Source of the DNA: a virus
Lineage: Duplodnaviria; Heunggongvirae; Uroviricota; Caudoviricetes
Strand: one strand, 5' to 3'
IMG/VR virus record: IMGVR_UViG_2875703104_000006
DNA length: 37,461 bases
A program made the translations under genes and the position numbers. The notes under the pieces are model-generated. The model saw nothing but the letters and a program-made list of their open reading frames with translations. It did no database searches and was not told where the DNA came from. Shown piece by piece: positions 2,557 to 35,228 of this stretch. Positions within the stretch are counted from its first letter, which is position 1, and each line of letters begins with the position of its first letter.

Positions 2557-5500
2557 TCAACTGATACTGATACCGGCTGTTGATTTCTTCATCACGACAA
2601 CAAGAAGGTCGCTGATACTGGTCGTTGGCGTCCAGTTATTTGCACCATATGAAGAAACATTGAAAGTCAGGGTGACATGGCCGTGTCCCGCTGGCATATC
2701 AATGACGGATGAAAATACCCTGCTGACATCCGTCGCGGGTTGCTGAAAGATTTCCTGTCCGTTCTTCAGTACCTGCAGCTTACAGGTTGAATACCAGTAT
2801 GACTGTTGGTTGTTGCTGTTGAAGTTTTCATGCTTACCACCGCGAAACAGAACGGGTGGGATTACTATCTGACGGTCAAAAGCCTGGTCATCGTACACAG
2901 TGACCGTTATTGTACCGCTGGCATAACTGCCATTTCTCGGAAAGGCTTTTCCCACCGTTTTGACAATATCACCTTCAATCTGGTTGGCAGACAGTTTTCC
3001 CAGAATCCGACAGTTCTGGTTAATCGTGACATTATTGAGCGTCCCTGAGTTCGCATTCACGTTACCGCTGATATCGGCATTTTTCGCCGTCAACCGCCCG
3101 TCCGGTGTCAGGGAAAATACCGGCGGATTGCCGCCGCTGGTAATGGTGGGAGCCGTCAGATACTTCAGGAACACTTCGTTCATGAATATCTGGTTGCCCT
3201 GCGCCACAAACATCGGCGTTTCATTCCCGTTTGCCGGGTCAATAAACGCGATACGGTTAGCGGCAACCAGGAACTGGCTCAGTTTGCCTTCCTCCGTATC
3301 CTCCATGCTGAGGCCAATACCCGCGACATAATGCCTGCCGTCTTCGGTCTGCTCAATTTTGACGCCCCACATGGCATTCCATTTATCGTTGGCGTCTTTC
3401 CACTCTTTCGAAAACTCCTCCAGTTTGCTGGCGTTATCCTCCGTCAGCTCGACTTTTTCCAGCAGCTCCTTGCCGAGATGGGATTCAGTTATCTGGCCTT
3501 TGAAAAAATCCAGATAGCCGGAAGCATCATCGCTCGCCTGACCGACAGCCTCCACGAATGCCGATTTGCCAACAGTATTCACACTGCGGATATAAAAATA
3601 ATAATCATGGCCCGGCTTAATATTGATACTGGCAGCTATCCAGTACAGCGCCGTGCCAAGATAGCGGGCTGTGGTTTCAACCTGCCTGATATCGGTAATC
3701 CGCTTTTCCGAGAACCAGAATTCAAACTGTACCGTCGGGTCATAAACGGCAAGATGCGGCGTGGCGGTTATCTGAAAATAGCCCGGCGTCAGATCAATCC
3801 TCGACGGTGCTGCCGGTGCGGCAATCCGGAACGATACCGACGCCGGATCGCCCTGCTGCCCCCACGCATTTACCGCCCGGACTGTCAGCGTGTACCGCCC
3901 CAGCGCCAGTTGCGTGAAGCGGTATGTGGTTTCCGTCGTCCGGGCCGTGCTGACCAGCCGCTCACTGCCGTCATCCGCTGCCACGGTCAGGCGAAGCATA
4001 AAGCTCACCCCCTTCACCACCTTCGGCGTGTCCCAGCGCGCCAGCACCTGATANNNNNNNNNNNNNNNNNNNNNTGTGGTTTCCGTCGTCCGGGCCGTGC
4101 TGACCAGCCGCTCACTGCCGTCATCCGCTGCCACGGTCAGGCGAAGCATAAAGCTCACCCCCTTCACCACCTTCGGCGTGTCCCAGCGCGCCAGCACCTG
4201 ATATTCCCCGCTGTCTGCGGTGACTTCGGCAGTCAGGTGCTGCACCGCTGGCGGCGTGACACCATTCACCGTGCCGCTCTGGTCGCCGTCAAAGTGCGCC
4301 CCGTTATCCACGATGGCCTCTTTTTCCGGTACATGCTGCACGGCAGTGATGGCATACGTGCCGTCATCGTTCTCACNNNNNNNNNNNNNNNNNNNNNCTG
4401 GCGGCGTGACACCATTCACCGTGCCGCTCTGGTCGCCGTCAAAGTGCGCCCCGTTATCCACGATGGCCTCTTTTTCCGGTACATGCTGCACGGCAGTGAT
4501 GGCATACGTGCCGTCATCGTTCTCACGGATACTCACGCAGCGGAACAGGCGCTGGCGCAACGTCGGCAACTTCAGCCCCCACACGCTGTATCCGGCAACG
4601 CCGTCAGGAACCCGGCTCACTTTTACCTTCACGCCGTCGGTGACGGACTGGACCTCCACGCTGACCGGATTGCCGCTTCCGTCAACCAGGCTTATCAGCG
4701 TGGTACCGGAGGATGGCAGAGTGATTTCACGGTCGAGCGTCAGCGTCCGGGTCTGGCTGTTCACCGCCAGCACGCGCCCGCCGATGCTGATACCCGCATA
4801 GTCATCATCGCAGATTTCAATAACATCGCCCGGCACATGGCGAAGCCCTTCTGCGCCCACGCTGAAATCCACGGTCTGCGTTTCCAGCAGTTCCGTTTTA
4901 ATCAGCCACAGCCCGGCTCGGTGTGCCTGCCCCCGACTGGTACAGCCAAAGGCATCCATCTTCGTGACGTTACGACCGTAACGGGCAATGGCCTGCGTGT
5001 CCTCCACAAGCTCTGTCGCCGTCTCCCAGCCGTTATCCGGGTCAATCCAGTTCACCTCAACGGCATTATGGCGGTCCTTCAGGGCGCTGAAACTGTAGCG
5101 GAACGGCGCGCCATCATCCGGCATCACCACATTACTGCGGTTATAGGTCCACACCTTATCCGACGGCCGGTCCTGCACGAACGTCAGCGTCTGCCCGTTC
5201 CATACCGGCATACAGCGCATCGCCGAGCAGAAATCACTGAGAACATCCCACGCCTTACGCTGTGTGGTCAGCCAGGCATTACAGGTGATGCGCGGCTCCG
5301 TGCCACCAAAACCATCCGGCACCGACTGGTCGCAATTCTGGCCGATGACATACAGCGCCCATTTGTCCACATCCGCCGCACCAAGACGTTTCCCCATGCC
5401 GTAGCGCGGATGGGTCAGCATATCCCACAGACACCAGGCCATGTTGTTGCTGTATGCCGGTTTTAACGTTCCGTCCCAGATACCGCTGTATTGTCGCGTC

Positions 5501-6245
5501 TGCGGGTTATAGTTCGACGGCACCTGCAGAATGCGCCCGCGCAGATGATAATTACGACTCACCTGCTGACTGCCGAACTGCTCCGAGTCCACCTGCACAC
5601 CGACCAGTGCCGTGTTCGGGTAGCACTGTTTCATATCGATGATTTCGGTGTATGACGACCAGAGCGTTTTGTTCTGCAGCTGGTCTGTGGTGCTGTCCGG
5701 TGTCATCCTGCGCATCCGGATATTGAACGGGCGCGGAGGCAGGTTATCCACCACCACCGAGGCCAGATACTGCGAGGTGGTTTTGCCCTTAATGGTGATG
5801 TCTTTTTCCGTCACCCAGCCACCGTTACGCTGTATCTGAACCAGCAGGCGAACTTCCGACGGATTCCGGTCACCCTTTGAAGTGGTTTCCACCAGTGCCT
5901 GCACACCGAAGGTAAAACGCAGACGGTCGATGTTTGCCGACGTGATGGTGCGGGTGATCGGCGTGTCGTATTTCACTTCCGTACCCAGCACCGTCTCGGA
6001 GCCGGAGGATTCAAACCCCTCCGGCGGAGTCTGCTCCTGCTCACCTGCCCGGAACACCACCGTGACACCGGAGATATTGGTATTCCCCTCAGTGTCCAGC
6101 ACCGGCGTACTGTTCAGTAGCACGCTTTTTAACCCATCCACCGGACCTTCAATCGGCCCTTCGCTGATGGCATCGATCACACTCAGTAACTGCGTGGATT
6201 TCAGGTTGTCCTTCGCTTCGCGCGGGGTATGCCCCTTACTGCTGC
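2557..6245 (-). CDS. J: Host specificity / central tail fiber protein J (lambda gpJ-like), lacking its own start codon and read in frame from the upstream fragment
   Basis: Translation [42 protein letters not shown]... matches lambda J from about residue 4 through a long stretch; the reading frame carries two internal duplication artifacts around N-runs 4054-4074 and 4377-4397. Confidence 0.9.
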
Positions 6246-6447
6246 CTTTATACGTTTTACCGAGCATGATGTCTTTTCCTGTATGCCCGTGACATACAGT
6301 CCATACACCAACAATATCTTTGTATGGTATGTAGCTGACACCTTCCAGGCCATCGTCACCACTCGGACCAGTGATGAGCACAGACGCTATGGCAACAGCC
6401 CCACCACCAATAGCAGCAGCAATAGCCTTGCGTAATGATGGCGACAT
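6246..6447 (-). pseudogene. N-terminal 67 codons of a phage-21-type SAR endolysin (signal-anchor-release domain) fused in frame to J
   Basis: [67 protein letters not shown] resembles the R21 SAR endolysin N-terminus as recalled; frame continues directly into J at about 6245; start overlaps the pinholin stop (ATGA at 6447). Confidence 0.7.
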
Positions 6448-6662
6448 TATTCACCTCTCGCAGCCTTACGCTTATCTTCTTTAATCTTGAAATAAAGGTT
6501 TGTCAGATACGTCAGCAAGCCAAATACCAGACTACCCAGCACACCTATTGCCGCCCACTGTGAGGGCGTGACTTTATCGAGCAACTGTAAAAACCAGTAC
6601 CCGGCACTACCTGCTGAGGTGCCATAGGCGACACCCGTTGTTAACTTATCCATGGATTTCAT
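6447..6662 (-). CDS. S: Class II holin (phage 21 S-type pinholin) with dual-start motif MKSM
   Basis: 71-aa product [71 protein letters not shown]; two TM segments; Met1/Met4 dual start typical of the S21 holin/antiholin pair. Confidence 0.85.
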
Positions 6663-7401
6663 AACCCCACCCCGCAGACAAAGCGGGTGTAAATTAAGGG
6701 GATACTACGTATCGCAATAAAGGCAGAAACGTAACAGATTCGGAGTCAGTGAATAACTCAGGTATTGGGTTATCAGCTAATATCGAGACTCAAAAAATGG
6801 AAAAACCCGCTCGACGGCGGGTTTAAGCTGTGTGACGAAGTAACCACTCTTAACAGCATAACCAATTTTTTACGTACGTAAACTACTAAATGATATTTGT
6901 GAGAATGCCACCGAGTGTTCAAAACACNNNNNNNNNNNNNNNNNNNNNGGAAAAACCCGCTCGACGGCGGGTTTAAGCTGTGTGACGAAGTAACCACTCT
7001 TAACAGCATAACCAATTTTTTACGTACGTAAACTACTAAATGATATTTGTGAGAATGCCACCGAGTGTTCAAAACACCACCACAAATACATAAGAAAACT
7101 TCAACAAATAACCAATGAATAATTTCCGATGTTATTTTTAGTTTGTTTAAATTAAGTTAAAGAATTATAGGGCGCTTATAAATAAGTGCCATTAATATAA
7201 ATTAGCTAATAGATTTATTTTCGTTCAAACAAGAGCCATGAATAGGATTAGATAGAAAAGGTTCAGATAAAAATAGAGATCTACTTCACAAATTAAATGA
7301 GAAACTAAAACTTACATCTTGAAATAATCGCATTGATTAGATGAATATTTATCGCGCAGTGACATCATTTTTTAATAATAGTTCAAAAAAAAGGGCGTAC
7401 A

Positions 7402-7690
7402 ATGAAAAAATTAACAGTGGCAATTTCTGCTGTAGCTGCATCAGTACTGATGGCGATGTCTGCTCAGGCAGCTGAAATTTATAATAAAGACAGTAACAAG
7501 CTGGATCTATACGGGAAAGTTAATGCCAAGCACTACTTCTCCTCTAATGATGCAGATGATGGTGATACTACTTATGCCCGTCTTGGCTTCAAAGGTGAAA
7601 CCCAAATCAACGATCAACTGACTGGTTTCGGTCAGTGGGAATATGAATTCAAAGGCAACCGTGCTGAATCTCAAGGTTCTTCCAAAGANA
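7402..7690 (+). pseudogene. nmpC: 5' fragment (about 96 codons) of an NmpC/OmpC-family porin gene; truncated
   Basis: [95 protein letters not shown] matches the NmpC signal peptide and first beta strands; similarity ends near 7690 (N at 7688) and a stop follows at 7716. AT-rich promoter region upstream (7080-7400). Confidence 0.8.
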
Positions 7691-7997
7691 AGATAAATTG
7701 TCTCTTCACTCCCTGACAGGGGCGATTCTTTTCAAATCGCCATTTCGCCATGGCCTTCACCACTTCATCACGAAACAAATTATGAGGCTCTGAGCGGAGA
7801 AAAACGATCCGTGTCACAGTCCCATCAGCACCAATATCGAACTTAACCTCAACCAGCCCCTTGATATAATTTGCTGCAGCATATTCCGGATATCGTGGAT
7901 ACACCGTCACTAATTGCCGGGGCTCATCAGCTTTTTGCTGCGAGCATCCCACTGCCAGGACAGATAACAGAAAAAGTAGTAAAAGGCGTCTTTTCAT
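7671..7997 (-). CDS. Lipoprotein with TonB C-terminal-like domain
   Basis: Start [21 protein letters not shown] (lipobox LAVGC) with SD AGGA; body [56 protein letters not shown] resembles the TonB_C fold motif. 3' end overlaps the nmpC remnant antisense, so the C-terminus may be non-native. Confidence 0.5.
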
Positions 7998-8307
7998 TTT
8001 TATTCCTACGGGTCTTATTCTGACAATATATCCTGTGTTCCAGACTGCCACATCACCACATCCTGTGCCATTATCTGACTCACATTACATACATCGCATC
8101 GGGATACAGTAGTAGCACTTTCTGTAATACAGCTTCCTGTTTCTTCCACCATCGCACCGGGATAAACCCGCGAATCATTAACGCGGTAAAAACCCGGTGT
8201 GCATCGTTTTTAATTATCCCCGCACACTCGCGCAGAGGAGTCTCCCTGTCGGGCTGCGGTCTCTGTTAATGAGGGAATATAGCGACGATACGGCGCATCA
8301 ACAAAAC

Positions 8308-8781
8308 TTATTTCAGGCACTGAGTGCGGATATAGTCCTGTGCCCCTTCCAGTTGCTTGTGCATCGTCATCAGCCGCTCTCTGAGGGTGAAATAATCCCG
8401 TGTAACGGTGTCTGCCAGTTGGGGGCCGGTTGCATTATCCACGCCGGAGGTGGTGGGGGCTTCACGCACGGAGCCTGGACAGGTGGCGTTGATCCGCAGG
8501 CGCTTACGACCAGCGGCAACGTCAGCGCGAAGAGTTTCATTTTCAGCTCTCGCATCGGCTAATTCCCTCGAGTATTTTGCATCGAGCGCAGCAACATCGC
8601 GCTGGCGCACCTGCATATCAGTAATGGTTGCGTTCGCCAGCTTCAGTTCACTGGCTTTGTTATCGCGCTGCGCTTTGTAGGTAATCGCGTTATCACGGTA
8701 ATGGTCTGTTGCCATCCACAGCGCACCACAGGCCACCAGCAGAATAACGATAAACGCGGAAAGCATTCGGTTTATGTTCAC
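8308..8781 (-). CDS. Rz: Spanin inner-membrane subunit Rz (i-spanin)
   Basis: N-terminal TM segment then [15 protein letters not shown]...[15 protein letters not shown]...[25 protein letters not shown], closely resembling lambda Rz. Confidence 0.85.
8370..8555 (-). CDS. Rz1: Spanin outer-membrane lipoprotein Rz1 (o-spanin), embedded in the +1 frame of Rz
   Basis: [56 protein letters not shown]: lipobox, proline-rich, close to lambda Rz1; start within the listed ORF is uncertain. Confidence 0.8.
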
Positions 8782-8909
8782 CCCAGCAACCCCGACGAAG
8801 ACAACATCATCCAGGCCATGGAAAGAAAAAGAGCAACCAGCATTAGTGAAAATGAAATGCCGACAATTACACAGAGGATCTTCGCCAGCGTTATGAGTTT
8901 GTCTGACAT
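8778..8909 (-). CDS. Small hydrophobic ORF between endolysin and Rz (43 aa)
   Basis: [43 protein letters not shown]; one TM segment; stop overlaps the Rz start (ATGA). Could be noncoding. Confidence 0.3.
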
Positions 8910-9262
8910 GCTTAATCCTCCCTTCACGATTTCAACGCAATGACCAGTTTTGCCAGCCCATACAGCATCGGGGACACAGCAACACCGACCGCCACCCACT
9001 TAATGGCAAAAGCCAGTGCTCTGCTGATGTCATCAGTTACAGGCGCTTTCAGTTCAAGGCCATTTTTCATAGTCAACCTCAACAGAATTCGTTTACACTT
9101 CGCCATGTTCTCCCTTGCCTTACTCAAGGTCAGAAACACAAAACCTCGCTTGGTGCCAACAAACGGGGTTTTTACTTTTATTCACTTACGTTTCGCCAGT
9201 TCGCAGGATTTCGTGTTATCCGCCCGCGTGGCCATTCCTCATTTTTCAGCAAAATATTCTGC

Positions 9263-9796
9263 TTATCTGTCGATACCCCAGCACGCCAGCGCGCTCTCCT
9301 GGTCACGACGGGATACCTGACCGTAACAGTTGTTTGAACGAATACGGCAGTCTCTGCCACCGTCCTTAATCCACCAGCGAATCGCTTCGCAGGCACCTTT
9401 TCGATCACCAGCATTAATTCGTCTGTAAAACGTCGACGGGAAACACTTACCGGGACCAATGTTGTACGGACAGAATGACGCGATCCCCGCTTTCTGGGGT
9501 TCGGTCAGCGGCACTCTGATGTTTTTCTCCACCCACGCCAGCGCTTTATCACGCTCAATGGCGTTAACCTGGTCGCATTTTTCCTTCGACAACTTCATGC
9601 CCGGAACGACAGGTTTGCCATCCACCATGATGGCACCACGGCAGATGGTCCAGATACCTGCACCATCACGGTATGCCGTGGTGTGGTTGCCTTCCTTTTC
9701 ATCCAGAAACTGGTCGAGAATGTCAGGCGCAGGCGCACCAGCGGCAATCAGCGCCAGAACGGCAGCCGACAGGCCGTATTTGATTTTGGTGTTCAT
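9263..9796 (-). CDS. R: Phage lysozyme (GH24-like endolysin) with Gly/Ala-rich N-terminal signal-anchor (SAR-type)
   Basis: 177 aa; N-terminus KYGLSAAVLALIAAGAPAP is a weakly hydrophobic SAR-like segment; body resembles lambdoid prophage lysozymes. Confidence 0.85.
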   Translation of the reverse strand: MNTKIKYGLSAAVLALIAAGAPAPDILDQFLDEKEGNHTTAYRDGAGIWTICRGAIMVDGKPVVPGMKLSKEKCDQVNAIERDKALAWVEKNIRVPLTEPQKAGIASFCPYNIGPGKCFPSTFYRRINAGDRKGACEAIRWWIKDGGRDCRIRSNNCYGQVSRRDQESALACWGIDR

Positions 9797-9832
9797 GGAT
9801 ATATTAAATATTCAGCCGCTGTCCCTGGCCCA

Positions 9833-10726
9833 CTAAATACGCACTTTAAGATAAGTCAGCCCCGGATGAAGCCAGTAAGCCGGCACTTTTTTAAAGGGTG
9901 GAGTATTAAAATCACGAAGAAGAGCCTCCCGCACAATTGCATCCTTATCAGCACCACTGGCCAGCGCTTCAATCTCAGCGGCTACCTGAAGATATCCCAT
10001 GCAACGGCCAACGCGCTTCATCAGCCCCTGCTTTTTATTGTTCTTCAGGTAATCAATGGCAAATTCAATGAGCTCCTCACTGTGCTGGTGCGATGGAGGT
10101 GTTACTTTCCCATTTTCTGAGATGGTTATTTTCCCAGCATCACCGGATACAACAAAGGATGGCCGGTTACACTCCCATTCCGGGTCACTGAAATTATCAT
10201 TATGAATACTGAAACACTCTGCGAGATTTCTGCTCATCACTTTCCGACAATAATCGTCAAACGCAGCAAACTGCTTTTCATCGCCAGAAGGCACCAATAT
10301 CGACCATTTCTTATTCAGCTCAACGACGTAGCTCTCCAGTTTTTCAATACGTGATTCAACATCATCTTTTTCTGACCGCAGTGTTGACGGCGGCATCTTC
10401 AGAGAACAAGTAATTCTTCCCGGTAGCTTTCCTTTGTAGGTTATCAACACATCCTGCGCCTCTAAAATTACGGGGCGCTTTTCCGGCAACGGTTCGTTCC
10501 ATTCACATAACCCGGCAGCAACATCCATGAAAAACTGCTTCGCCTGCTTTTTCGCCTCAGCTTCGTAAAACTCCAGCGTGGCACCTTCAGTACGGTCAAG
10601 ACTAATCGCCACATCTGGCAACAACAGCGACGCTTGCCCGTCACCTTCCGACTTCACAGTAACAGTAACCTTATCCCCGTAATTATTTATCCCCTTAACA
10701 ACCAGTTCATATTTTTTATTCATCAC
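9833..10726 (-). CDS. Hypothetical 297-aa protein inserted between holin and endolysin
   Basis: Clean ORF, start 2 nt after the holin stop, ends 37 nt before the endolysin start; no recognisable motif. Confidence 0.6.
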   Translation of the reverse strand: MMNKKYELVVKGINNYGDKVTVTVKSEGDGQASLLLPDVAISLDRTEGATLEFYEAEAKKQAKQFFMDVAAGLCEWNEPLPEKRPVILEAQDVLITYKGKLPGRITCSLKMPPSTLRSEKDDVESRIEKLESYVVELNKKWSILVPSGDEKQFAAFDDYCRKVMSRNLAECFSIHNDNFSDPEWECNRPSFVVSGDAGKITISENGKVTPPSHQHSEELIEFAIDYLKNNKKQGLMKRVGRCMGYLQVAAEIEALASGADKDAIVREALLRDFNTPPFKKVPAYWLHPGLTYLKVRI

Positions 10727-10727
10727 T

Positions 10728-10934
10728 TTACTCTCCCCGCGCCGCCTTACGCCGGTCCTCTTTGATTTTGAAATACAGGTTAGTCAGGTACGTCAGCAGC
10801 CCAAACAGCAGACTCCCCAGCACGCCTATTGCCGCCCACTGAGACGGGGAAACCCTGTCCAGCAACTGCAGGAACCAGTAGCCCGTTCCCACCGCTGACG
10901 TGGTGTATGACACACCTGTTGTGATTTTTTCCAT
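10728..10934 (-). CDS. S: Class II holin (S21-type pinholin), single start
   Basis: 68 aa [68 protein letters not shown]; paralog of the 6447-6662 holin. Confidence 0.85.
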
Positions 10935-10945
10935 CTGGTACGTGA

Positions 10946-11128
10946 CTACGGAATGAGCGGATCTTCGGGTTTGCTTCCGGCTGACTGACTGGCGCTGATT
11001 CTCTCAGCGGCCCTTTTATCAATCTGCCTGCGCCAGAAATCGCGCACTGCCCTGTACCCACCCGAAAGAAGATACATAACACAGACTGCCATACAGAAGT
11101 ACAGCATTACCTGATGAATAAATGTCAT
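10946..11128 (-). CDS. Small membrane protein immediately upstream of the holin (60 aa)
   Basis: N-terminal hydrophobic segment [13 protein letters not shown]; stop 12 nt upstream of the holin start; weak SD. Confidence 0.4.
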
Positions 11129-11264
11129 AATTTCTTACCGTTATGGTTGACAATGAGAACTGTTTTCATTTAGAAATGATTGATGTCGAAAGCATCTTTT
11201 CTTTACATTCTCCATTGGGATTACCTCCGCCAGCTTCCATTCCTGCCGCTGGCGGCTTTTTTTA

Positions 11265-11532
11265 TCATGCCGCGATGTCCGCGTTGTTCACTTCCACCTT
11301 CACACTGTCAATCAGCAGCGTATATGTCGCCGCCTTTGATATGCCTGTCAGTTGCAGTTTGTCCGCCGCCCCTGATGCCGGAGACCGCCGCAATGGCCTG
11401 CATCAGGGTATAAGGCGTGATGGCCACCGGACTGCCAAATGGCTGCCACCCCTCCTTCAGTTTTTGTGTCAGTCGTTTCGCAAGGTCTGACGGCGATGCC
11501 GCCCTGACAACATCATAGTGTTTAAATGCCAT
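11265..11532 (-). pseudogene. Internally deleted remnant of the NanS-p-like esterase gene (first about 45 codons joined out of frame to the last about 40 codons)
   Basis: 11410-11532 matches the 5' end of the intact gene at about 16250-16375; 11265-11390 matches its 3' end at 14264-14390. Confidence 0.7.
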
Positions 11533-11792
11533 GGTTCTTTCCACCATCTGAAAAATAATTCTTTAAAATACCTGACATGTAATACAGAAAAAACACAAAA
11601 CCATACCTTAAATAAAAACCTCATCATCAAGCAGATATGCATGGATAAACTACAAGACGAGATATAAACCACCCTGCATTTAAATAAACAATAAACAACA
11701 TCAGAAAAATAATTCTGCTCTATGGTTTACATTCAAAAATATCATTTATACTTTTCAGAACATCACCAGCAAGACATAAACAAGGAAACTAA

Positions 11793-12128
11793 ATGAAGTG
11801 GATTGTGATTGATACAGTTATCCAGCCATCATGCGGAATATCTTTTTCAGTCATATGGAGTAAAATAAAATTAATAATCTGGTATCAATCGGATGCTTTC
11901 TTACCTCCTGAAAGTATATTTACACTGACTCACACAGGTATCATGCTCAATAACAAAGTGCTACCTGTAACCATTTACAACGTAGCACCATTCAATAAAA
12001 CATTCTGGAATTTAATCAAAAACAGCCAGGAATGTCCTACAAATACAGATAACGTATTGAATGAATGCTTTAATAACCGTTGCACTCTGCAAATATGTCC
12101 TTATGGACTAAAACAACAAAGTCCATAA
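11793..12128 (+). CDS. Hypothetical ORF in a strongly AT-rich island (111 aa)
   Basis: Only plus-strand ORF in this segment; atypical composition; no motif recognised. Confidence 0.25.
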
Positions 12129-12159
12129 GGAGTTTACTCACATCTGACAAAATCAATAT

Positions 12160-12420
12160 AAACAGCCCCTCCGGAGAGGGGCTGGAGAGTGGCGCTATGT
12201 GCCATTGCATGGTGCCGGGTGCCTCCCGGTGAATTCAGTACCAGCACCTGAATCCGCGATTATCCCATATACCTACTCGCTGATTGCCCCTCCGCACAGG
12301 GGGATTCACCATGCCAGTTTCTTTTAACAAACTCCCCGCAAACCAGACAACAGTCAACCGCCTGAATTGTGAAGTATTTAAAAATTTCTCCCGCTAACTG
12401 ATACCCGGCTAACAGTCTGG
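12160..12420. repeat. Copy 1 of a roughly 250-bp repeat family containing the perfect palindrome AGCCCCTC-cgga-GAGGGGCT
   Basis: Near-identical to 17082-17335 and related to 16595-16800. Confidence 0.6.
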
Positions 12421-12575
12421 CGTTTTCTTTTTCAGCAACGGGAAAGCAACAACCACCACACCCGCCACCAGCACACCGTCAGCCAGCACTGACATTATCC
12501 GGCTGCTGCAATGCCACTCACAAAAACAGTAAGCAATCACTTTTTACCGTAACAAGTGATAATCCAGATATGTAT

Positions 12576-12929
12576 CTACCCCAGATGAGTAATCCGAAGT
12601 TCATCCATACCACAGGTACTGGCTATTCTGTTGTACTCCTGAACAAGAGCAAATAATTCTGAATTAGCAACCATGAACTCATCGCAAACCCTCTGTATAG
12701 CATCACTATTCAGAATAATAACGTCTCTTCCCGAAAGACGATCAGGAGTACAGAACAAAACTGTCAAACGGCTGAAGGCCTTTGCTCGTCCTGCATTGAC
12801 TATATCAATACGCTGCCTAAGGATGAAACACCCCGACGCCTCATCAATATTCACTCTACCCACACCATATGAATGATAAATATTTAATGCTGAAAAAACC
12901 ATTAGACCGTATAACAAACACTCAATCAA
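12576..12929 (-). CDS. Hypothetical 117-aa ORF at the position equivalent to TerB (and to stx in Stx phages) in the decayed module copy
   Basis: ORF with hydrophobic N-terminus MIECLLYGLMVFSALNIY; lower GC than surroundings; no obvious SD; coding status uncertain. Confidence 0.3.
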   Translation of the reverse strand: MIECLLYGLMVFSALNIYHSYGVGRVNIDEASGCFILRQRIDIVNAGRAKAFSRLTVLFCTPDRLSGRDVIILNSDAIQRVCDEFMVANSELFALVQEYNRIASTCGMDELRITHLG

Positions 12930-13042
12930 TACTTAACAGAACTTTTATTTTTGACAAACATAAAATATTTTCAACAATATCCTGAGCCAGGTATATTTCA
13001 GTATAAGGCTCTGCCGGAAGGAATCTGGAAGAATGAATATAG

Positions 13043-13116
13043 CGCGCTGTACTGGATTCGAACCAGTGACCGATTGCTTAGAAGGCAATTGCTCTGTCCG
13101 GCTGAGCTAACAACGC
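13043..13116 (-). tRNA. argO: tRNA-Arg (anticodon UCU)
   Basis: Cloverleaf readable by eye: 7-bp acceptor stem GCGTTGT/ACAGCGC, anticodon loop CTTCTAA, T-loop GGTTCGAATCC; end coordinates approximate. Confidence 0.8.
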
Positions 13117-13129
13117 TGAATACCGATAA

Positions 13130-13210
13130 TGGACCGCCATCGGGGACCCGCCCCCGCACCAACAACCCTGTTATCGTGTCGTCTGCTCTTCCTGATAAGC
13201 TAATGGCGGT
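13130..13210 (-). pseudogene. Degenerate tRNA-like sequence at the position of tRNA-Arg(UCG) in the other cluster
   Basis: Acceptor ends (accgccat...atggcggtcca) conserved with 18195-18271 but D-arm and T-loop disrupted. Confidence 0.35.
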
Positions 13211-13216
13211 TTGTGA

Positions 13217-13292
13217 TGGTGGCCCTTGCTGGATTTGAACCAGCGACCTGGCGATTATGAGTCGCTCGCTCTCACCACTGAGCTAAAGGGCC
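13217..13292 (-). tRNA. ileZ: tRNA with anticodon CAU (Met, or Ile2 if lysidine-modified; ileZ-like)
   Basis: GGCCCTTTAGCTCAGTGGTGAGAGC...anticodon loop CTCATAA...GGTTCAAATCC...GGGCCACCA with encoded CCA. Confidence 0.8.
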
Positions 13293-13337
13293 GGGAGCAG
13301 AATAATAACGGTCCGTAATTAATTCCGCAATAAAAAA

Positions 13338-13435
13338 CCCGCTCGGCGGCGGGTTGTAGAAACTCTTCTAACGCCAGGCATAAAAAGCCCATTGTTATGA
13401 CGAATTTACCACAGATTCCGGAAAAATCAACCTTG
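13338..13435 (-). promoter_or_regulatory. Late promoter PR'-like (-35 TTGATT, -10 TAAATT), Q-utilisation region and tR'-like terminator downstream of Q copy A
   Basis: Minus-strand sequence TTGATTtttccggaatctgtggTAAATTcgtcataacaatgggc resembles lambda PR' and its early transcribed region; followed by hairpin CCCGC-n6-GCGGG plus T-run at 13338-13353. Confidence 0.55.
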
Positions 13436-14267
13436 TTACCTAGTTACCTTTTTTAACTGCCGCTCAGCCCATGCTTCTTCAATATCAAACCGGGTCACCA
13501 GCGCATCATAGAATTTCTTAACTGTTTTTTCCCATGACGCGCGTGTTATCTGGTTTGTCACCTCGCATATAGCATTAAATGCCTCCGTTGATGGTAGTCT
13601 TTCATAGCCACGACCACCACAACGCTGGCAGTCTCTGATAACAGGCATACCACGTTTTACCGACTCTTCACGATGAATGGCGACACCACGCCCACGGCAA
13701 TCCTTACAGGCGGTGGAAACCTCACCCTTTCCGCCACACTCCGGACAGGCAACTTTTACCACCTCCCTGACTTTTTTCCATACCACGTTTTACCGACTCT
13801 TCACGATGAATGGCGACACCACGCCCACGGCAATCCTTACAGGCGGTGGAAACCTCACCCTTTCCGCCACACTCCGGACAGGCAACTTTTACCACCTCCC
13901 TGACTTTTTTCCATTCTTCCCAGTAAGACGAATACACACCTTTCGTACACTTTGCCCATACCGGCGGCTTACCATCCGGATACTGGACCTTGTTTGTAAA
14001 AACTACGCTTTCAATAAATTTTTCCCCATAGCAACAAGGGCACTGCTTTTTACTCGCTGCGCTGCGGGCATAATCCTCAAAAGCGTACGAAGCCATAATG
14101 CGCATCACTACCGGTTTTATTTCTGCCGGAAGTTTTCTCAACGCCGCCACACGATCGCACCGACTGAGTGCATAATCTGCCAGTAATTCTGTTGCCCGCG
14201 CCCTGTCATTCATACTGATGCCCATTTTCCCCAGTCCATTCCTGCCGCTGGCGGCTTTTTTTATCAT
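13436..14267 (-). pseudogene. Q: Antiterminator Q, copy A: native N-terminus replaced and frame broken by a 133-bp exact tandem duplication
   Basis: Q-like sequence with zinc-binding CPECGGKG...CKDCRGRG; duplicated 133-bp units at about 13648-13780 and 13781-13913; 5' end abuts the nanS-p 3' end. Confidence 0.75.
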
Positions 14268-16375
14268 GCCGCGATGTCCGCGTTGTTCACTTCCACCTTC
14301 ACACTGTCAATCAGCAGCGTATATGTCGCCGCCTTTGATATGCCTGTCAGTTGCAGTTTGTCCGCCGCCCCTGATGCCGGAGATTTCACCAGTGTGAACG
14401 GCGTCCCCCGTTTCTCATCCAGTACCGGCGTCACCTGAATGCTGTTGTTTCCGGCAAACTCAAAAGCCAGTGTGTGCCATCCGTTATCAAAGACCCCGAA
14501 CGTNTCCAGCTTCGCATTCGGCTTCTTGTGGTGCATCGCGTTCAGGTTCGTCGCATCCGTCTGCAGNAAGAAGGACATCAGCATGTCGTTGCCTTCCTCT
14601 GCCAGCGTCACTCCCTCCGGCAGGGACGACAACTGCCAGTAAATGCCCAGGGCAAACTGATTCGGCACCAGTGAACCCGGCAACTTAAACCGTACGCTCA
14701 CACGTCCCCCCTTCTTCAGTAACTCCACTCCCTGTCCGGCTGCATCATGCTCCAGAAACCAGATGTGGTTTTCCGGTTTATTCAGTTGCAGGGCCTTACC
14801 TCCCGTAGCCCCCGCATCACTGACCACCGCTTCAGCAATGTTTTTGTTAACATTGTCTCCGCTCGCCGGTTTGTGATAATAGCGCCAGCCCTGTGATGCC
14901 AGGTCTTCGCCGGACGCCAGCAGACTCATCAGGGTTCGGTTACTGACCGGGGCTTCCGGCTCTCTCTCCGTACCTTCACCGGAAGGTCCGGTGGGCTTCA
15001 CCGTATCAGGCTGTTTTCCGGTAATGAATTCAGCGTTTCTCCCGGCATGCACAAGAATCGCCGTTGCCAGACGGTCGGAAATAATCCCACGACGTGCCCA
15101 TGATCCAAAATGCGTTTTACGGTCNGCCGTCGTCCAGGTTTTGGCGTCCGTTCGACCACCGGCTCCGTAATACCCAATATCCGCAACATCCGGATCTTCT
15201 GACGGCTCGTTGGTACCCACATTTCGCCCGTTTTCATCCGTCATAAACGGCACAAAGAAGATTTTTTTTGCGGATTTCGTCTTGTATGCACCATACACCG
15301 CATCGTATTGCGAAGAATAAGTCTGCTTCCAGTAGTAGGTCGTGTCGCCACAAATCCAGGGAACCGATGACGGAGAGCCCCCGAGACACTGACCTCCGAA
15401 TTCCGACAGGTCAGAACGATATTTTTCCACCATGGAATCAAACAGCCCCGGCTGNGTGGCGTATGCACCCTGTTTCAAATCAAACTCGCCCTGCATCCAG
15501 ACCACTGCAAGCAGAATATTTTTAGGGTTGGCCTTCAGTGCGGCCTGAGTACGGGTAAGCAGGTCCTTGTACAGTGGCTTATCTACACCCCAGCGTGCCG
15601 AGGTCTCGCTTGCGCCGGTGGATTCGCTGAAGGTACCTTCATCGCCCGCCAAAAATGCAGAACCACCACGGCAGCACGGAACCAGAAGAATACCGGCATT
15701 CGCCGGAATAAACGGCAACAATTTCTTCGCGATATGTAATCCCTGCCCCACGCATCCATACTGAGCTGCNCTGGCTTTCGGGTGTGAAAACTTACTCAAA
15801 TCCTGAACATCATGCAGGCAGTGGTCCGCAGGAATAATGTCATTGTAGTTACAGNACGCACCACCCGGCGTGACAGTGCTGCGACGCGCCAGCTGTTTAA
15901 TACGCGGGTCCGGACGGTCATATGTCTCCGGCAGCGGAAGCCCTTCACCATACGCCATACCGTTTGACTGCCCGGCCAGGGCAACAACAAAGTAATACTC
16001 CGGGTTGCTGGTGGTGCTGATAACTGCGCCTTCTCCATCCGACGGCTTCACCACCACAGGTGTGGTGACATCACCTTCCGCCGCAATGGCCTGCATCAGG
16101 GTATAAGGCGTGATGGCCACCGGACTGCCAAATGGCTGCCACCCCTCCTTCAGTTTTTGTGTCAGTCGTTTCGCAAGGTCTGACGGCGATGCCGCCCTGA
16201 CAACATCATAGTGTTTNNNNNNNNNNNNNNNNNNNNNGGCCTGCATCAGGGTATAAGGCGTGATGGCCACCGGACTGCCAAATGGCTGCCACCCCTCCTT
16301 CAGTTTTTGTGTCAGTCGTTTCGCAAGGTCTGACGGCGATGCCGCCCTGACAACATCATAGTGTTTAAATGCCAT
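14264..16375 (-). CDS. nanS: NanS-p-like sialate O-acetylesterase (DUF1737 N-terminal domain plus SASA-type esterase domain); contains a duplication/gap artifact
   Basis: N-terminus MAFKHYDVVRAASPSDLAKRLTQKLKEGWQPFGSPVAITPY and GQSNGMAYGEG motif; 129-bp duplicate around N-run 16217-16237 plus single Ns. Confidence 0.75.
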   Translation of the reverse strand: MAFKHYDVVRAASPSDLAKRLTQKLKEGWQPFGSPVAITPYTLMQAXXXXXXXKHYDVVRAASPSDLAKRLTQKLKEGWQPFGSPVAITPYTLMQAIAAEGDVTTPVVVKPSDGEGAVISTTSNPEYYFVVALAGQSNGMAYGEGLPLPETYDRPDPRIKQLARRSTVTPGGAXCNYNDIIPADHCLHDVQDLSKFSHPKAXAAQYGCVGQGLHIAKKLLPFIPANAGILLVPCCRGGSAFLAGDEGTFSESTGASETSARWGVDKPLYKDLLTRTQAALKANPKNILLAVVWMQGEFDLKQGAYAXQPGLFDSMVEKYRSDLSEFGGQCLGGSPSSVPWICGDTTYYWKQTYSSQYDAVYGAYKTKSAKKIFFVPFMTDENGRNVGTNEPSEDPDVADIGYYGAGGRTDAKTWTTXDRKTHFGSWARRGIISDRLATAILVHAGRNAEFITGKQPDTVKPTGPSGEGTEREPEAPVSNRTLMSLLASGEDLASQGWRYYHKPASGDNVNKNIAEAVVSDAGATGGKALQLNKPENHIWFLEHDAAGQGVELLKKGGRVSVRFKLPGSLVPNQFALGIYWQLSSLPEGVTLAEEGNDMLMSFXLQTDATNLNAMHHKKPNAKLXTFGVFDNGWHTLAFEFAGNNSIQVTPVLDEKRGTPFTLVKSPASGAADKLQLTGISKAATYTLLIDSVKVEVNNADIAA

Positions 16376-16594
16376 GAATCCTCCCGGCCGGGATAATATT
16401 GTGAGTAAAATAAGGAGCGGGCTGAAGTCCGGAAGTTACAGGACAATGGCAGAAGAGAGACGACAGCCCGCAATTCGAAAAAGACCGCGCAGTTGCGCAG
16501 CCTTATGAATTCTGGTTAAAATCCATTCGATTATAAAAATGTATATCTCATGCTGTTGCCCGAACCCACTCGGGCTTTTTTTGCCCACAAGAAA

Positions 16595-16800
16595 GCCCCT
16601 CCGGAGAGGGGCTAAAGCCGCGTATCTGTATCATCATGCACATGGTGCCGGGTGCCTCCCGGTGAGTTCAGCCCGGTGCCACTAAACCCGCGTCATTCTC
16701 GTTTTGATAATCAGAGATTATACCGTCACCAGTCGCCCCTCCGCTCAGGGGGATTCACCATGCGAAATTTTTTTAACAAATGCCCAGTCTGACAGGCAAC
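16595..16800. repeat. Diverged copy of the hairpin-containing repeat family
   Basis: Shares AAAGCCCCTCCGGAGAGGGGCT, ggtgccgggtgcctcccggtgagttcag and cccctccgc(a/t)cagggggattcaccatg segments with 12160-12420 and 17082-17335. Confidence 0.55.
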
Positions 16801-17081
16801 TGTCAACTTACTGAATTGTGAGCAACATAGCATTTAACGGGGAACCTGTTTTCTGCAGTAAAAAGGCCCACCGGAGCGGATGGGCCTGGAAGGATAGCGG
16901 TCATGTGATGCCGGTTTCCCGGTAACTCAGCACCGGTATCTGAGTCAACGTTTTCTCTACTGGGTCATTTCCGATACGCCCTGCCTGCTGACAGGCTTTC
17001 ATCACATCTGAAAATATAGCACCCTGACTGATACTGTAGTACCTAAGGTTCCAGAAACTGTGATGTATCCGGCACAGAAAA

Positions 17082-17335
17082 GCCCCTCCGGAGAGGGGCT
17101 GGAGAGTGGCACTATGTGCCATTGCATGGTGCCGGGTGCCTCCCGGTGAGTTCAGTATCAGCACCTGAACCCGCACAGAAAGGATAAGGGTCGGTGACAA
17201 AACACCAGTTGCTGATTGCCCCTCCGCACAGGGGGATTCACCATGCCAGTTTCTTTTAACAAACTCCCCGCAAACCAGACAACAGTCAACCGCCTGAATT
17301 GTGAGGTATTTAAAAATTTCAACGGGTAACTGATA
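17082..17335. repeat. Copy of the hairpin-containing repeat family, immediately downstream of the small membrane gene
   Basis: Near-identical to 12160-12420. Confidence 0.6.
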
Positions 17336-17933: not shown

Positions 17934-18106
17934 TGTGACGTTCCTTTGGGTGGGTGAGCCAACGCCCGGGAGCGATCTGCCCACAGAGAAAGTCACACTG
18001 ACCACTCCGTAAGCTCACCCCCGAAAGGCTCTGTGGTTGATATGCGCCGGGCGTGGCGCGGATACAAAAAAGGCCCGCAAAAGCGAGCCGGGAAAAATAA
18101 GTCTGG

Positions 18107-18180
18107 CGCGTTGTACTGGATTCGAACCAGTGACCGATTGCTTAGAAGGCAATTGCTCTGTCCGGCTGAGCTAACAACGC
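18107..18180 (-). tRNA. argO: tRNA-Arg (anticodon UCU), second copy
   Basis: Near-identical to 13043-13116. Confidence 0.8.
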
Positions 18181-18194
18181 AGAATGCCGATAAA

Positions 18195-18271
18195 TGGACC
18201 GCCATCGAGGACTCGAACCCCGCGCAACCAGCTTCGAAGGCTGGCGCTCTATCCCGATGAGCTAATGGCGG
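18195..18271 (-). tRNA. argN: tRNA-Arg (anticodon read as UCG; argN-like)
   Basis: CCGCCAT TA GCTC ATCGGGATA GAGC G CCAGC CTTCGAA GCTGG ... CGGGG TTCGAGT CCTCG ATGGCGG T CCA; all four arms pair. Confidence 0.75.
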
Positions 18272-18280
18272 TATGTGATA

Positions 18281-18356
18281 TGGTGGCCCTTGCTGGATTT
18301 GAACCAGCGACCTGGCGATTATGAGTCGCTCGCTCTCACCACTGAGCTAAAGGGCC
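18281..18356 (-). tRNA. ileZ: tRNA with anticodon CAU (Met/Ile2; ileZ-like), second copy
   Basis: Identical to 13217-13292. Confidence 0.8.
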
Positions 18357-20029: not shown

Positions 20030-20984
20030 CTATCGCGTTACCCTCTTTAACTGCCGCTCCGCCCATGCCTCTTCAATGTCAAACCGAACCACCAACGTAT
20101 CGTAAAAGCGTTTCACTGATTTTTTCCACGTATCAAGCGTGATAGCACTCGTCACTTTGCATATGGCATTAAATGCCTCCGTTGATGGCAGCCTTTCACA
20201 GCCACGACCACCACAACGCTGGCAATCTCTGATAACAGGCATACCACGTTTTACCGACTCTTCACGATGAATGGCGACACCACGCCCACGGCAATCCTTA
20301 CAGGCGGTGGAAACCTCACCCTTTCCGCCACACTCCGGACAGGCAACTTTTACCACCTCCCTGACTTTTTTCCATACCACGTTTTACCGACTCTTCACGA
20401 TGAATGGCGACACCACGCCCACGGCAATCCTTACAGGCGGTGGAAACCTCACCCTTTCCGCCACACTCCGGACAGGCAACTTTTACCACCTCCCTGACTT
20501 TTTTCCATTCTTCCCAGTAAGACGGATACACGCCTTTTGTGCACTTTGCCCACACTGGTGGCTTACCATCCGGATACTGGATCTTGTTTGTAAAAACCTC
20601 GCTTTCAATAAATTTTTTTCCGTGACAGCAGGGGCACTGTTTTTTGCTCGCCGCGCTACGGGCATAATCTTCAAACGCATACGAAGCCATAATGCGCATC
20701 ACTACCGGTTTTATTTCTGCCGGAAGTTTTCTCAACGCCGCCACACGATCGCACCGACTGAGTGCATAATCTGCCAGTAATTCTGTTGCCCGCGCCCTGT
20801 CATTCATACTGATGCCCATTTTCCCCAGGAACGCAGAAAACCCCATCTCAGCCCGATTCTGTGTCATGCCCTGCGCGGCCATCACATCAGTGATACTCAG
20901 CGCATCTTTTGACGTTGAGGCCGATGCATCGGTCAGGCCAGGGGATTTTGGGGAGTAGTATTTCGGTAAATCTTCCAGTTTCAT
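20030..20984 (-). CDS. Q: Antitermination protein Q (lambda Q family), copy B; frame interrupted by a 133-bp exact tandem duplication
   Basis: N-terminus MKLEDLPKYYSPKSPGLTDASA...DVMAAQGM resembles the lambda Q N-terminus; zinc-binding Cys cluster; duplication splits the gene into ORFs 20316-20984 and 20030-20380. Confidence 0.8.
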
Positions 20985-24978: not shown

Positions 24979-25134
24979 TTACTCCTCAGGTTCGTAAGCT
25001 GTGAAGACAGCGACCTCCGTCTGGCCGGTTCGGATTCGTACCTCGCAGAGGTCTTTCCTCGTTACCAGTGCCGTCACAATGACGGTTAAACAGATGACGA
25101 TCAGGGCGATTAGCATCGCCTTTTGCTGCTTCAT
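24979..25134 (-). CDS. hok: Hok/Gef-family type I toxin (51 aa)
   Basis: MKQQKAMLIALIVICLTVIVTALVTRKDLCEVRIRTGQTEVAVFTAYEPEE: single TM plus conserved Hok C-terminal region; in-frame upstream extension consistent with a mok-like leader. Confidence 0.8.
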   Translation of the reverse strand: MKQQKAMLIALIVICLTVIVTALVTRKDLCEVRIRTGQTEVAVFTAYEPEE

Positions 25135-25425
25135 AGCCTGCTTCTCCTTGCCTTTCGGCACGTAAGAGGCTAACCTACGTGTGTAGAGCATAGATATGGC
25201 CTCAGATTAATGTTAAGCGTCTTGCAGGACGCGTAATGTTAACTGGGGCTTTTCTCTATCTGCCTTTTGGTGTTCATGCCTGAGACAGATAGCCTCAAGC
25301 ACCCGCTGCAATTCTACTTAACTCTCCTTTTCCCGCAAACCGTTTTTATCCCCAGCGGCAAATCGAATACACCACCAGCGCCACCGCCATCGCAATTCCT
25401 ACCGTTGTTAATGCTTCAGGCCAGG

Positions 25426-34955: not shown

Positions 34956-35228
34956 CATACGCTTAAGTGACAACCCCGCTGCAACGCCCTCTGTTATCAA
35001 TTTTCTGGTGACGTTTGGCGGTATCAGTTTTACTCCGTGACTGCTCTGCCGCCCTTTTTAAAGTGAATTTTGTGATGTGGTGAATGCGGCTGAGCGCACG
35101 CGGAACAGTTAAAACCAAAAACAGTGTTATGGGTGGATTCTCTGTATCCGGCGTTAATTGTTAACTGGTTAACGTCACCTGGAGGCACCAGGCACCGCAT
35201 CACAAAATTCATTGTTGAGGACGCGATA

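Follow-up and report, generated by a model that had tools for sequence, protein, structure and literature searches.

A long form of the YdfR family with a previously undescribed C-terminal domain, encoded between the holin and endolysin genes of an S21-type lysis cassette

Introduction

The closest described relative of the gene reported here is ydfR (b1555) of Escherichia coli K-12, an uncharacterised gene of the lambdoid Qin prophage that lies, in the order essQ-ydfR-rrrQ-rzpQ, between the genes for an S21-type holin (essQ) and a lysozyme (rrrQ). The same succession of holin (S), YdfR and endolysin (R) genes is found in BP-4795, mEp460, Evi and PhiR5_1. We analysed a minus-strand open reading frame (ORF) that occupies this slot in the IMG/VR virus record IMGVR_UViG_2875703104_000006 (Caudoviricetes), a stretch of 37,461 nucleotides that we call, at its full length, the window. 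Judged from its sequence, the gene is a long form of the known, uncharacterised YdfR (DUF1327) family of E. coli prophages, and the main new point is its C-terminal domain, which is previously undescribed in databases.

K-12 YdfR came out of a 2026 two-hybrid screen that sought partners for the N-terminal half of RNase E; the interaction was mapped to YdfR residues 1–72, and Strep-YdfR co-purified Rne(1-598) in an eluate that contained DNase-resistant nucleic acid (PMC13232886). When the K-12 protein was over-produced, few transcripts changed and growth was not slowed; in standard growth, ydfR was almost without RNA-seq reads (PMC13232886). Deletion of ydfR was also a hit in an envelope-leakiness screen, in whose supplements the neighbouring lysis genes are not listed (PMC3879167); read-through of the endolysin gene from the resistance cassette could account for this hit. 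Literature searches on ydfR, DUF1327, essQ/rrrQ and the lysis cassettes of Shiga-toxin (Stx) phages turned up nothing beyond these two sources, the RNase E paper and the screen list.

Compared with these relatives, the window protein stands out by its length. It shares with K-12 YdfR the N-terminal domain (N-domain; 47% identity over residues 1–74) and the slot between holin and lysozyme genes; unlike the window protein, K-12 YdfR has only 103 residues, consisting of the domain and a short unrelated tail, and its gene shares 4 nt with the start of the endolysin gene. In the 296 residues of the window protein, the N-domain is followed by a linker, a helical hairpin and a C-terminal domain (C-domain) that is conserved, and a 36-nt spacer separates the gene from R. 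The short YdfR proteins of Stx phages (BP-4795 ORF47, YYZ-2008 and many Stx1a phages) have the same slot, start context, N-domain and linker, with 85% identity over residues 1–112, and end at about residue 112 within the linker, without hairpin and C-domain. The Stx2a phage Stx2_95 encodes the same three-part protein at 77.5% identity, in a version of 329 aa that carries a 33-residue insertion in the hairpin.

Results

An intact gene under selection between holin and endolysin

In the ORF list of the window, the reading frame stands on the minus strand at 9833–10726 and yields 297 aa if read from a GTG. At the junction, the holin stop codon TAA (10728–10730) is followed by a single base, then by this GTG (10724–10726) and an ATG (10721–10723). 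Because the Stx2_95 and BP-4795 alleles both read GCG in place of the GTG and retain the ATG, and because the endolysin ATG of the insert-free VT2-Sakai cassette lies at the position of the ORF start, behind the same GGAGAGTAA context, we take the ATG at 10723 as the conserved start. The gene then spans 9833–10723, with 296 codons and a TAG stop (9833–9835), and begins 4 nt past the holin stop. A 36-nt spacer (9797–9832, minus strand) without obvious Shine-Dalgarno sequence separates it from R and is conserved wherever a C-domain gene precedes R; among the IMG/VR loci in which R was found, this gene starts 36 or 42 nt past the ORF end. The first-pass annotation of this DNA had described a gene of about 890 nt between holin and endolysin, and such an intact gene is indeed there, with distances of 4 and 36 nt to its neighbours in place of the 2 and 37 nt given at first.

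Full-length homologues of the ORF were found, and the ratio of non-synonymous to synonymous substitution rates (dN/dS) is 0.16–0.4 over its C-terminal two thirds, which together identify it as a genuine coding gene and not a chance ORF; the reading frame is open through all 296 codons. An assembly error, which the first-pass annotation had named as a possible refutation, is excluded by three observations: positions 7690–14503 are free of N, although the window is a draft scaffold; the 894 bases of the ORF recur at an identity of at least 99% in 416 complete-genome records; and S, the ORF and R are each 100% identical in many IMG/VR prophage loci. The ORF is real, intact and under selection.

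A DUF1327 domain joined to a conserved C-terminal domain

Residues 1–100 match the Pfam family DUF1327 (PF07041, the YdfR family) with 137.9 bits, against a curated gathering score of 25 bits (E 1.3e-40, profile positions 1–88 of 93), and residues 1–296 align with PHROG 1085, a family of unknown function, over its entire length (profile positions 1–296 of 296, E 3.1e-190). The protein had initially been described as having no recognisable motif, a view that these two matches overturn. Database homologues of 296 aa carry the name 'YdfR family protein', and an NCBIfam search with the whole protein gave no match. In size, the protein departs from its family, having 296 residues compared with about 100 (103 aa in K-12, a 93-position Pfam model), so that two thirds of it lie outside the model; the size of about 100 residues is a descriptive trait of YdfR proteins and not a curated criterion of membership.

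Four parts can be told apart along the chain, all encoded on the minus strand. The DUF1327 N-domain (residues 1–75, 10499–10723), which matches residues 1–74 of K-12 YdfR with a BLASTP E value of 6e-21, is predicted to consist of three strands and a long helix. Residues 76–119 (10367–10498) form a basic linker (isoelectric point, pI, 9.05; dN/dS 0.3–0.4) that is predicted to be disordered, with a predicted local distance difference test score (pLDDT) below 50 for residues 74–117. It is followed by an acidic helical hairpin or coiled coil (residues 120–181, 10181–10366) and by the alpha/beta C-domain (residues 182–296, 9836–10180), which is delimited by alignments, pLDDT and dN/dS and belongs to no database family.

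The AlphaFold model used here was computed from 46 sequences, including the Salmonella relatives described below, and reaches a mean pLDDT of 72.8, compared with 46.6 when 21 close homologues were used. Within residues 1–76 it places strands at 5–14, 18–27 and 38–43 and a helix at 50–76 (10-residue block means of 72–95 over residues 1–70), followed by a helical hairpin over residues 112–175 (block means 60–73), and by three short strands and four helices over residues 185–296 (block means 73–96). With pI values of 5.0 and 4.7, the N-domain and the hairpin are acidic; the linker and the C-domain are basic. In a Kyte-Doolittle plot the highest 19-residue mean is 0.75, with no hydrophobic or transmembrane segment, and the protein is predicted to be soluble.

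Constraint is distributed unevenly over the gene. In several independent comparisons, dN/dS is lowest in residues 182–296, at 0.16–0.22, so the most constrained part of the protein is the very domain that RefSeq leaves without annotation. The middle part shows values of 0.32–0.42, and the N-domain shows 0.55–0.73 when compared with close alleles and 0.14–0.32 when compared with K-12 and mEp460. An alignment with distant relatives contains 16 invariant C-domain positions, including H214, G239, R240, Q246, P276, K278, W284, P287, G288 and Y291. On identical sequence, the RefSeq annotation pipeline (PGAP) calls codons 1–112 only, as a pseudogene named 'YdfR family protein, incomplete, missing C-terminus', and in most of the matches listed RefSeq has no feature over the C-terminal third (for example NZ_CP023820.1 1275513–1275860, equivalent to window positions 9836–10180). 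This call of a truncated pseudogene is contradicted by the evidence of selection and conservation.

Against Pfam at E <= 10, a set of 11 C-domain sequences produced scattered noise only (DUF6200, z-alpha, YqeY), and profiles of the C-domain and of the whole family found nothing under E 0.01 in the Protein Data Bank (PDB). Foldseek returned nothing under E 0.4 from the PDB, where designed proteins of the curved-sheet or NTF2-like kind scored best, over some 44 residues, and nothing under E 0.03 from BFVD. Among the 5027 defence models of PADLOC-DB, the best match was PbeC (E 0.018, 11 bits), which fell on the coiled-coil part, and nothing was consistent across 16 family members. The strand-strand-strand-helix start of the C-domain was also considered as a duplicate of DUF1327, a possibility that was rejected by an hhalign probability below 1%.

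Distribution of the gene and exchange of its modules

Among the complete E. coli genomes surveyed (5426), DNA encoding the N-domain is present in 3158, or 58%, and reaches 8 copies in a single genome. The C-terminal 348 bases occur in 787 of these genomes (14.5%), and the insert-free S/R junction of the 933W/VT2-Sakai type in 636. The initial premise that a holin gene normally sits directly before the endolysin gene is thus correct for phage 21, 933W and VT2-Sakai, but it does not describe E. coli at large, in which a YdfR gene is common at the S21-type junction (3158 versus 636 genomes). Phage records show three states of the cassette, namely insert-free (VT2-Sakai and many Stx2a phages), with a YdfR gene of about 114 aa (BP-4795, YYZ-2008 and many Stx1a phages), and with the long form (Stx2_95). 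Since otherwise similar cassettes do without it, the ORF is a dispensable accessory gene at a recombination-prone holin-endolysin slot of S21-type cassettes.

In every one of the 80 IMG/VR loci that contain the C-domain, its gene is flanked by S and R and reads in the same direction. It has 296 aa in 29 of these loci, 329 aa in 10, and 185 aa in another 28, in which it starts at the helical segment, lacks DUF1327 and has R directly after it; the gene is interrupted or at a contig edge in the other 13 (10 truncated internally, at 134 or 158 aa, and three unclear or running off the contig end). A split and permuted arrangement is seen in loci L008–L010, where a 213-aa gene composed of helical segment and C-domain comes first and is followed by a separate 75-aa DUF1327 gene, and the N-domain is found alone in K-12, BP-4795 and many others. 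Some alleles, such as that of locus L018, are identical to the window past residue 75 and diverged in the N-domain; this abrupt change in divergence indicates recombination at the domain boundary. A type II toxin-antitoxin pair, fused or split, was considered and rejected, given that each domain, frequent as their fusion is, also occurs without the other.

The ORF has a GC content of 46% (47% at third codon positions), compared with about 55% (59–70% at third positions) in S, R and Rz. Some of these cassettes also carry ant and DNA methylase cargo between R and Rz.

Small antisense ORFs of 86–116 aa follow the YdfR gene in a number of loci (L005 4599–4916, L008 4902–5252, L013 2744–3040, L014 3084–3344 and L098 4807–5124), and the window has none. 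Their interpretation as one conserved partner was rejected, as those of L005, L008, L013 and L014, the loci covered by the sequence comparison, are mutually unrelated; the 105-aa antisense ORFs of two Salmonella loci may be one protein.

Salmonella relatives in a different context

In a search of one genome for each of 185,579 species, matches were found only in Escherichia and Shigella. An exhaustive search of 1.84 billion representatives returned 74 relatives, and those that could be identified come from Escherichia, Shigella or Salmonella. Five of the distant relatives (P0142, P0150, P0155, P0167 and P0183; P0142 and P0155 from Salmonella enterica) have 266–314 aa, are 24–31% identical to the window protein and keep the order of N-domain, helical segment and C-domain. 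In Salmonella, the C-domain is conserved down to 30–40% identity.

In Salmonella prophages, the homologues come after Q and before the holin gene, from which an antisense ORF separates them, and they are accompanied by hicAB or by a gene for an ArtA-like or a ParE-like toxin. In two Salmonella lineages, the holin gene belongs to another family (PF16080). Placement in the late operon beside lysis genes is therefore conserved, but neither the holin-endolysin junction nor the S21 type of holin is. Because the Salmonella context differs in this way, and because other cargo occurs inside the same E. coli cassettes, position alone is weak evidence for a function in lysis.

The lysis cassette and its late transcription

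The immediate neighbours proposed in the first-pass annotation, an S21-type holin gene upstream and an endolysin gene of the signal-anchor-release (SAR) type downstream, are both borne out. On the minus strand, the class II holin gene (10728–10934, 68 aa) matches PF04971 (P21 holin S; E 6e-33) and is preceded by a small DUF1378 ORF of 60 aa (10946–11128; PF07125, E 1.6e-35). The upstream start codon of the holin gene (10941–10943) is ACG, giving ACG-TAC-CAG-ATG here, compared with ATG-TAC-CAG-ATG (MYQM, for example in L008) in related cassettes; because of this ACG at the upstream position of the dual start, the 68-aa form is the only one that an ATG can start. The SAR-type lysozyme gene R (9263–9796; PF00959, E 2.4e-24) encodes a Gly/Ala-rich hydrophobic segment at its N-terminus (MNTKIKYGLSAAVLALIAAGA) and an E-x8-D-x5-T motif. 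Beyond it, also on the minus strand, lie the Rz i-spanin gene (8308–8781; PF03245, E 2e-47) and, embedded in it, Rz1 (8370–8555), whose ORF contains a lipobox. Between R and Rz there are two small minus-strand ORFs of 60 and 43 aa (8924–9106 and 8778–8909; PHROGs 1115 and 4906, function unknown), both with hydrophobic, membrane-type segments, which make up a second cargo slot of the cassette and are possibly lysis-related.

Upstream of the cassette, an STnc100 element (12154–12343, minus strand) was identified with Rfam RF02076 at 132 bits. We take this element to be the leader of the Q-dependent late transcript, that is, the late-promoter leader or tR' region. The minus strand carries a strong terminator-like hairpin at 12184–12163 and a promoter-like site at 12523–12494. 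From 12494 to Rz, a consensus scan of the ORF strand found no sigma-70-like promoter, a type of scan that cannot exclude weak or embedded promoters, and no convincing terminator was found across S, the ORF and R. Given that no promoter or terminator match intervenes and that the STnc100 leader lies upstream, the ORF should be transcribed late together with the lysis genes, in agreement with the co-expression suggested for it earlier. Where a cassette has no insert, the endolysin gene starts at the ribosome-binding position that is here taken up by the start of the ORF, and the ORF appears to be translationally coupled to the holin gene.

Other features of the window

The window is a scaffold with five 21-N gaps (1922–1942, 4054–4074, 4377–4397, 6928–6948 and 16217–16237) and many single Ns. 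Each 21-N gap is flanked by a 129-bp duplication, as contig ends were joined through their overlap, and the gene order may be an artefact to the left of about 7690. This region contains another holin gene of the S21 type (6447–6662, minus strand), which has the dual start MKSM known from phage 21 and directly overlaps the start of a 1296-aa ORF (2557–6447). The first approximately 66 residues of this ORF are SAR-endolysin-like and are fused to a lambda-J-like tail tip protein, which is present from about its residue 3 onwards; the fusion reflects either a large deletion that brought R and J together or a chimera made in scaffolding. This insert-free junction at 6447–6662 thus belongs to the less trustworthy part of the scaffold.

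Further late-region features occur in the window more than once. Besides the STnc100 element described above, there are two others at 16583–16792 and 17070–17275, with a match to the anti-Stx2 small RNA (sRNA) AsxR at 16528–16580; there are two Met/Arg tRNA clusters (13042–13292 and 18104–18356) and two Q antiterminator genes (20316–20984 and 13722–14267). A nanS-p-like esterase gene is found at 14264–16375, and no stx genes are present in the window, which looks like a late region of Stx-phage type that lacks stx and was duplicated or merged. Downstream of Rz, a lipoprotein-like ORF with a TonB_C domain (7671–8051, minus strand) corresponds to PHROG 1267, 'Rz-like spanin', and a porin fragment (7402–7716, plus strand) that is cut by N looks NmpC/OmpC-like by eye only. 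The early region contains the sok antitoxin RNA of a hok/sok module and the sRNA DicF, at 25129–25304 and 35003–35054.

Discussion

We tentatively favour an explanation in which the long-form YdfR protein is accessory cargo that would act in the cytoplasm late in the lytic cycle, through RNase E or RNA and outside the envelope-disruption machinery. The binding partner of the N-domain would be the catalytic half of RNase E, RNA, or both, as was published for residues 1–72 of K-12 YdfR; the helical hairpin could oligomerise the protein, and the C-domain could supply a second binding or catalytic activity. The likely outcome would be altered decay or processing of particular RNAs during late gene expression. 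The insertion also parts R from the holin-coupled ribosome-binding site, and as a side effect endolysin synthesis may drop or be delayed.

The catalytic half of RNase E is bound by RapZ and RraA; T7 gp0.7 phosphorylates RNase E, and phiKZ Dip binds its C-terminal scaffold. If the K-12 result transfers, the N-domain would contact the catalytic half, Rne(1-597), and the protein would co-purify with RNA, as RapZ does; it has no sequence similarity to RapZ, RraA, gp0.7 or Dip, and the transcriptome was little affected when K-12 YdfR was over-produced (PMC13232886). Several points weigh against an action through RNase E. The link comes from a homologue that is 47% identical, and the two-hybrid and co-purification results could be bridged by RNA. 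The small number of transcripts changed upon over-production indicates that K-12 YdfR is no strong RNase E inhibitor (PMC13232886). About one locus in three encodes a C-domain but no N-domain, so the function of the C-domain cannot depend on docking of DUF1327 to RNase E. Moreover, the gene adjoins lysis genes in every context seen, which also fits a lysis-related role, and the sequence and structure searches gave no relative with an activity.

A lysis-timing role for the protein is neither supported nor excluded, and we regard it as possible, though on the unlikely side. Here, a cytoplasmic regulator would bind the holin at its basic cytoplasmic tail or target the endolysin, so that triggering is delayed or made sharper, or else the insert would simply tune endolysin translation. 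Such a role is suggested by the location of the gene, which all loci examined place beside lysis genes, in E. coli between S and R and in Salmonella close upstream of the holin gene, and by the loss to R of the holin-coupled start site, which the ORF has taken, leaving R behind a 36-nt spacer that lacks an obvious Shine-Dalgarno sequence. The acidic N-domain and hairpin are matched by the last 16 residues of the holin, which are basic, and the K-12 ydfR deletion, not those of its lysis-gene neighbours, is in the envelope-leakiness hit list (PMC3879167), a result that, as noted, read-through from the resistance cassette could also explain. These indications are offset by the absence of a transmembrane segment and of any likeness to annotated lysis proteins, all matching PHROGs being of 'unknown function', and by cassettes of the 933W/VT2-Sakai type, which work without the gene, as does the second insert-free S|R junction of the window. 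In Salmonella, the gene is split from the holin gene by an antisense ORF, is paired with a PF16080 holin and sits amid toxin and toxin-antitoxin cargo, and the unrelated ant and DNA methylase genes in the same E. coli cassettes weaken the argument from position further, as does the published link of the K-12 homologue to RNase E (PMC13232886).

Soluble or accessory lysis regulators do exist in other phages, for example T4 RIII and P1 LydB. The known accessory regulators, which include the S71 antiholin of phage 21, P1 LydB, T4 RI and RIII and the Mu gp25 releasin, are mostly membrane proteins or holin isoforms. The YdfR gene resembles them in being encoded in or beside the lysis cassette, in being made late and in being dispensable for lysis as such; it differs from them in having no similarity of sequence or fold, no PHROG match in the lysis category and no hydrophobic segment.

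Cargo for conflict, which would exclude or abort other phages or counter host defence and be carried in the cargo region of the late operon, is a doubtful alternative. Lambdoid late cargo, such as stx, bor and lom, or, in Stx phages, ant and methylase genes located between R and Rz, shares with the YdfR gene a variable presence, a fixed slot and a deviant base composition. Such a role would agree with the patchy, mosaic distribution, in which a single slot shows several alleles and exchanged modules, with a GC content below that of the flanking genes, and with the raised rate of amino-acid change in a variable stretch of the N-domain (dN/dS about 0.55–0.73 among close alleles). The hicAB, ParE-like and ArtA-like toxin genes adjoining the Salmonella homologues, and the variable small antisense ORFs often found alongside the gene, point the same way. 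On the other side, none of the 5027 PADLOC models gave a significant match (best E 0.018), no promoter of its own was found, which makes expression in a lysogen unlikely, late expression is unusual for anti-defence genes, and K-12 ydfR has almost no RNA-seq reads in standard growth (PMC13232886).

A classical moron is flanked by a promoter and a terminator of its own and is active in the lysogen; the window gene departs from this pattern, as its gaps are 4 nt upstream and 36 nt downstream and the consensus scan found neither a promoter of its own nor a convincing terminator. As doubtful as conflict cargo, in our estimate, is a reading in which the C-domain is a new fold with its own activity and the protein an unrecognised class of late phage factor, which would tether that activity to RNase E or RNA and thereby reprogramme the decay of host RNA shortly before lysis, or would be a soluble timer of the pinholin/SAR-endolysin pathway. 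A decaying remnant, in which only the first approximately 112 codons are a YdfR gene and the remainder is non-functional, fits the PGAP call of codons 1–112 as 'missing C-terminus', the lack of C-terminal annotation in most of the matches listed, the 10 internally truncated and three unclear or edge-cut genes among the 80 IMG/VR loci and the defective look of the host prophage in the window, but is very improbable, given that all 296 codons are open, that the C-terminal 115 codons have a dN/dS of 0.16–0.22, that the C-domain is kept at 30–40% identity in Salmonella with 16 invariant residues and has block-mean pLDDT values of 73–96, and that it also exists as a gene of its own.

The YdfR family is among the commonest uncharacterised prophage genes of E. 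coli, and the gene lies in the lysis cassette of Shiga-toxin and related phages, in which toxin release depends on late-gene expression and lysis. The long form represents a conserved, complete architecture, so that work on the 103-residue K-12 YdfR addresses a truncated version, and the S21-type holin-endolysin junction is a cargo slot, at which position alone should not be taken as a sign of lysis function. Should the link to RNase E or an effect on lysis timing be true for the long form, it would be a factor in late gene expression or in the release of Stx-type phages. If instead the protein is a new class of late factor, that factor would be present in some form in more than half of E. coli genomes, with its complete form mis-annotated as a pseudogene.

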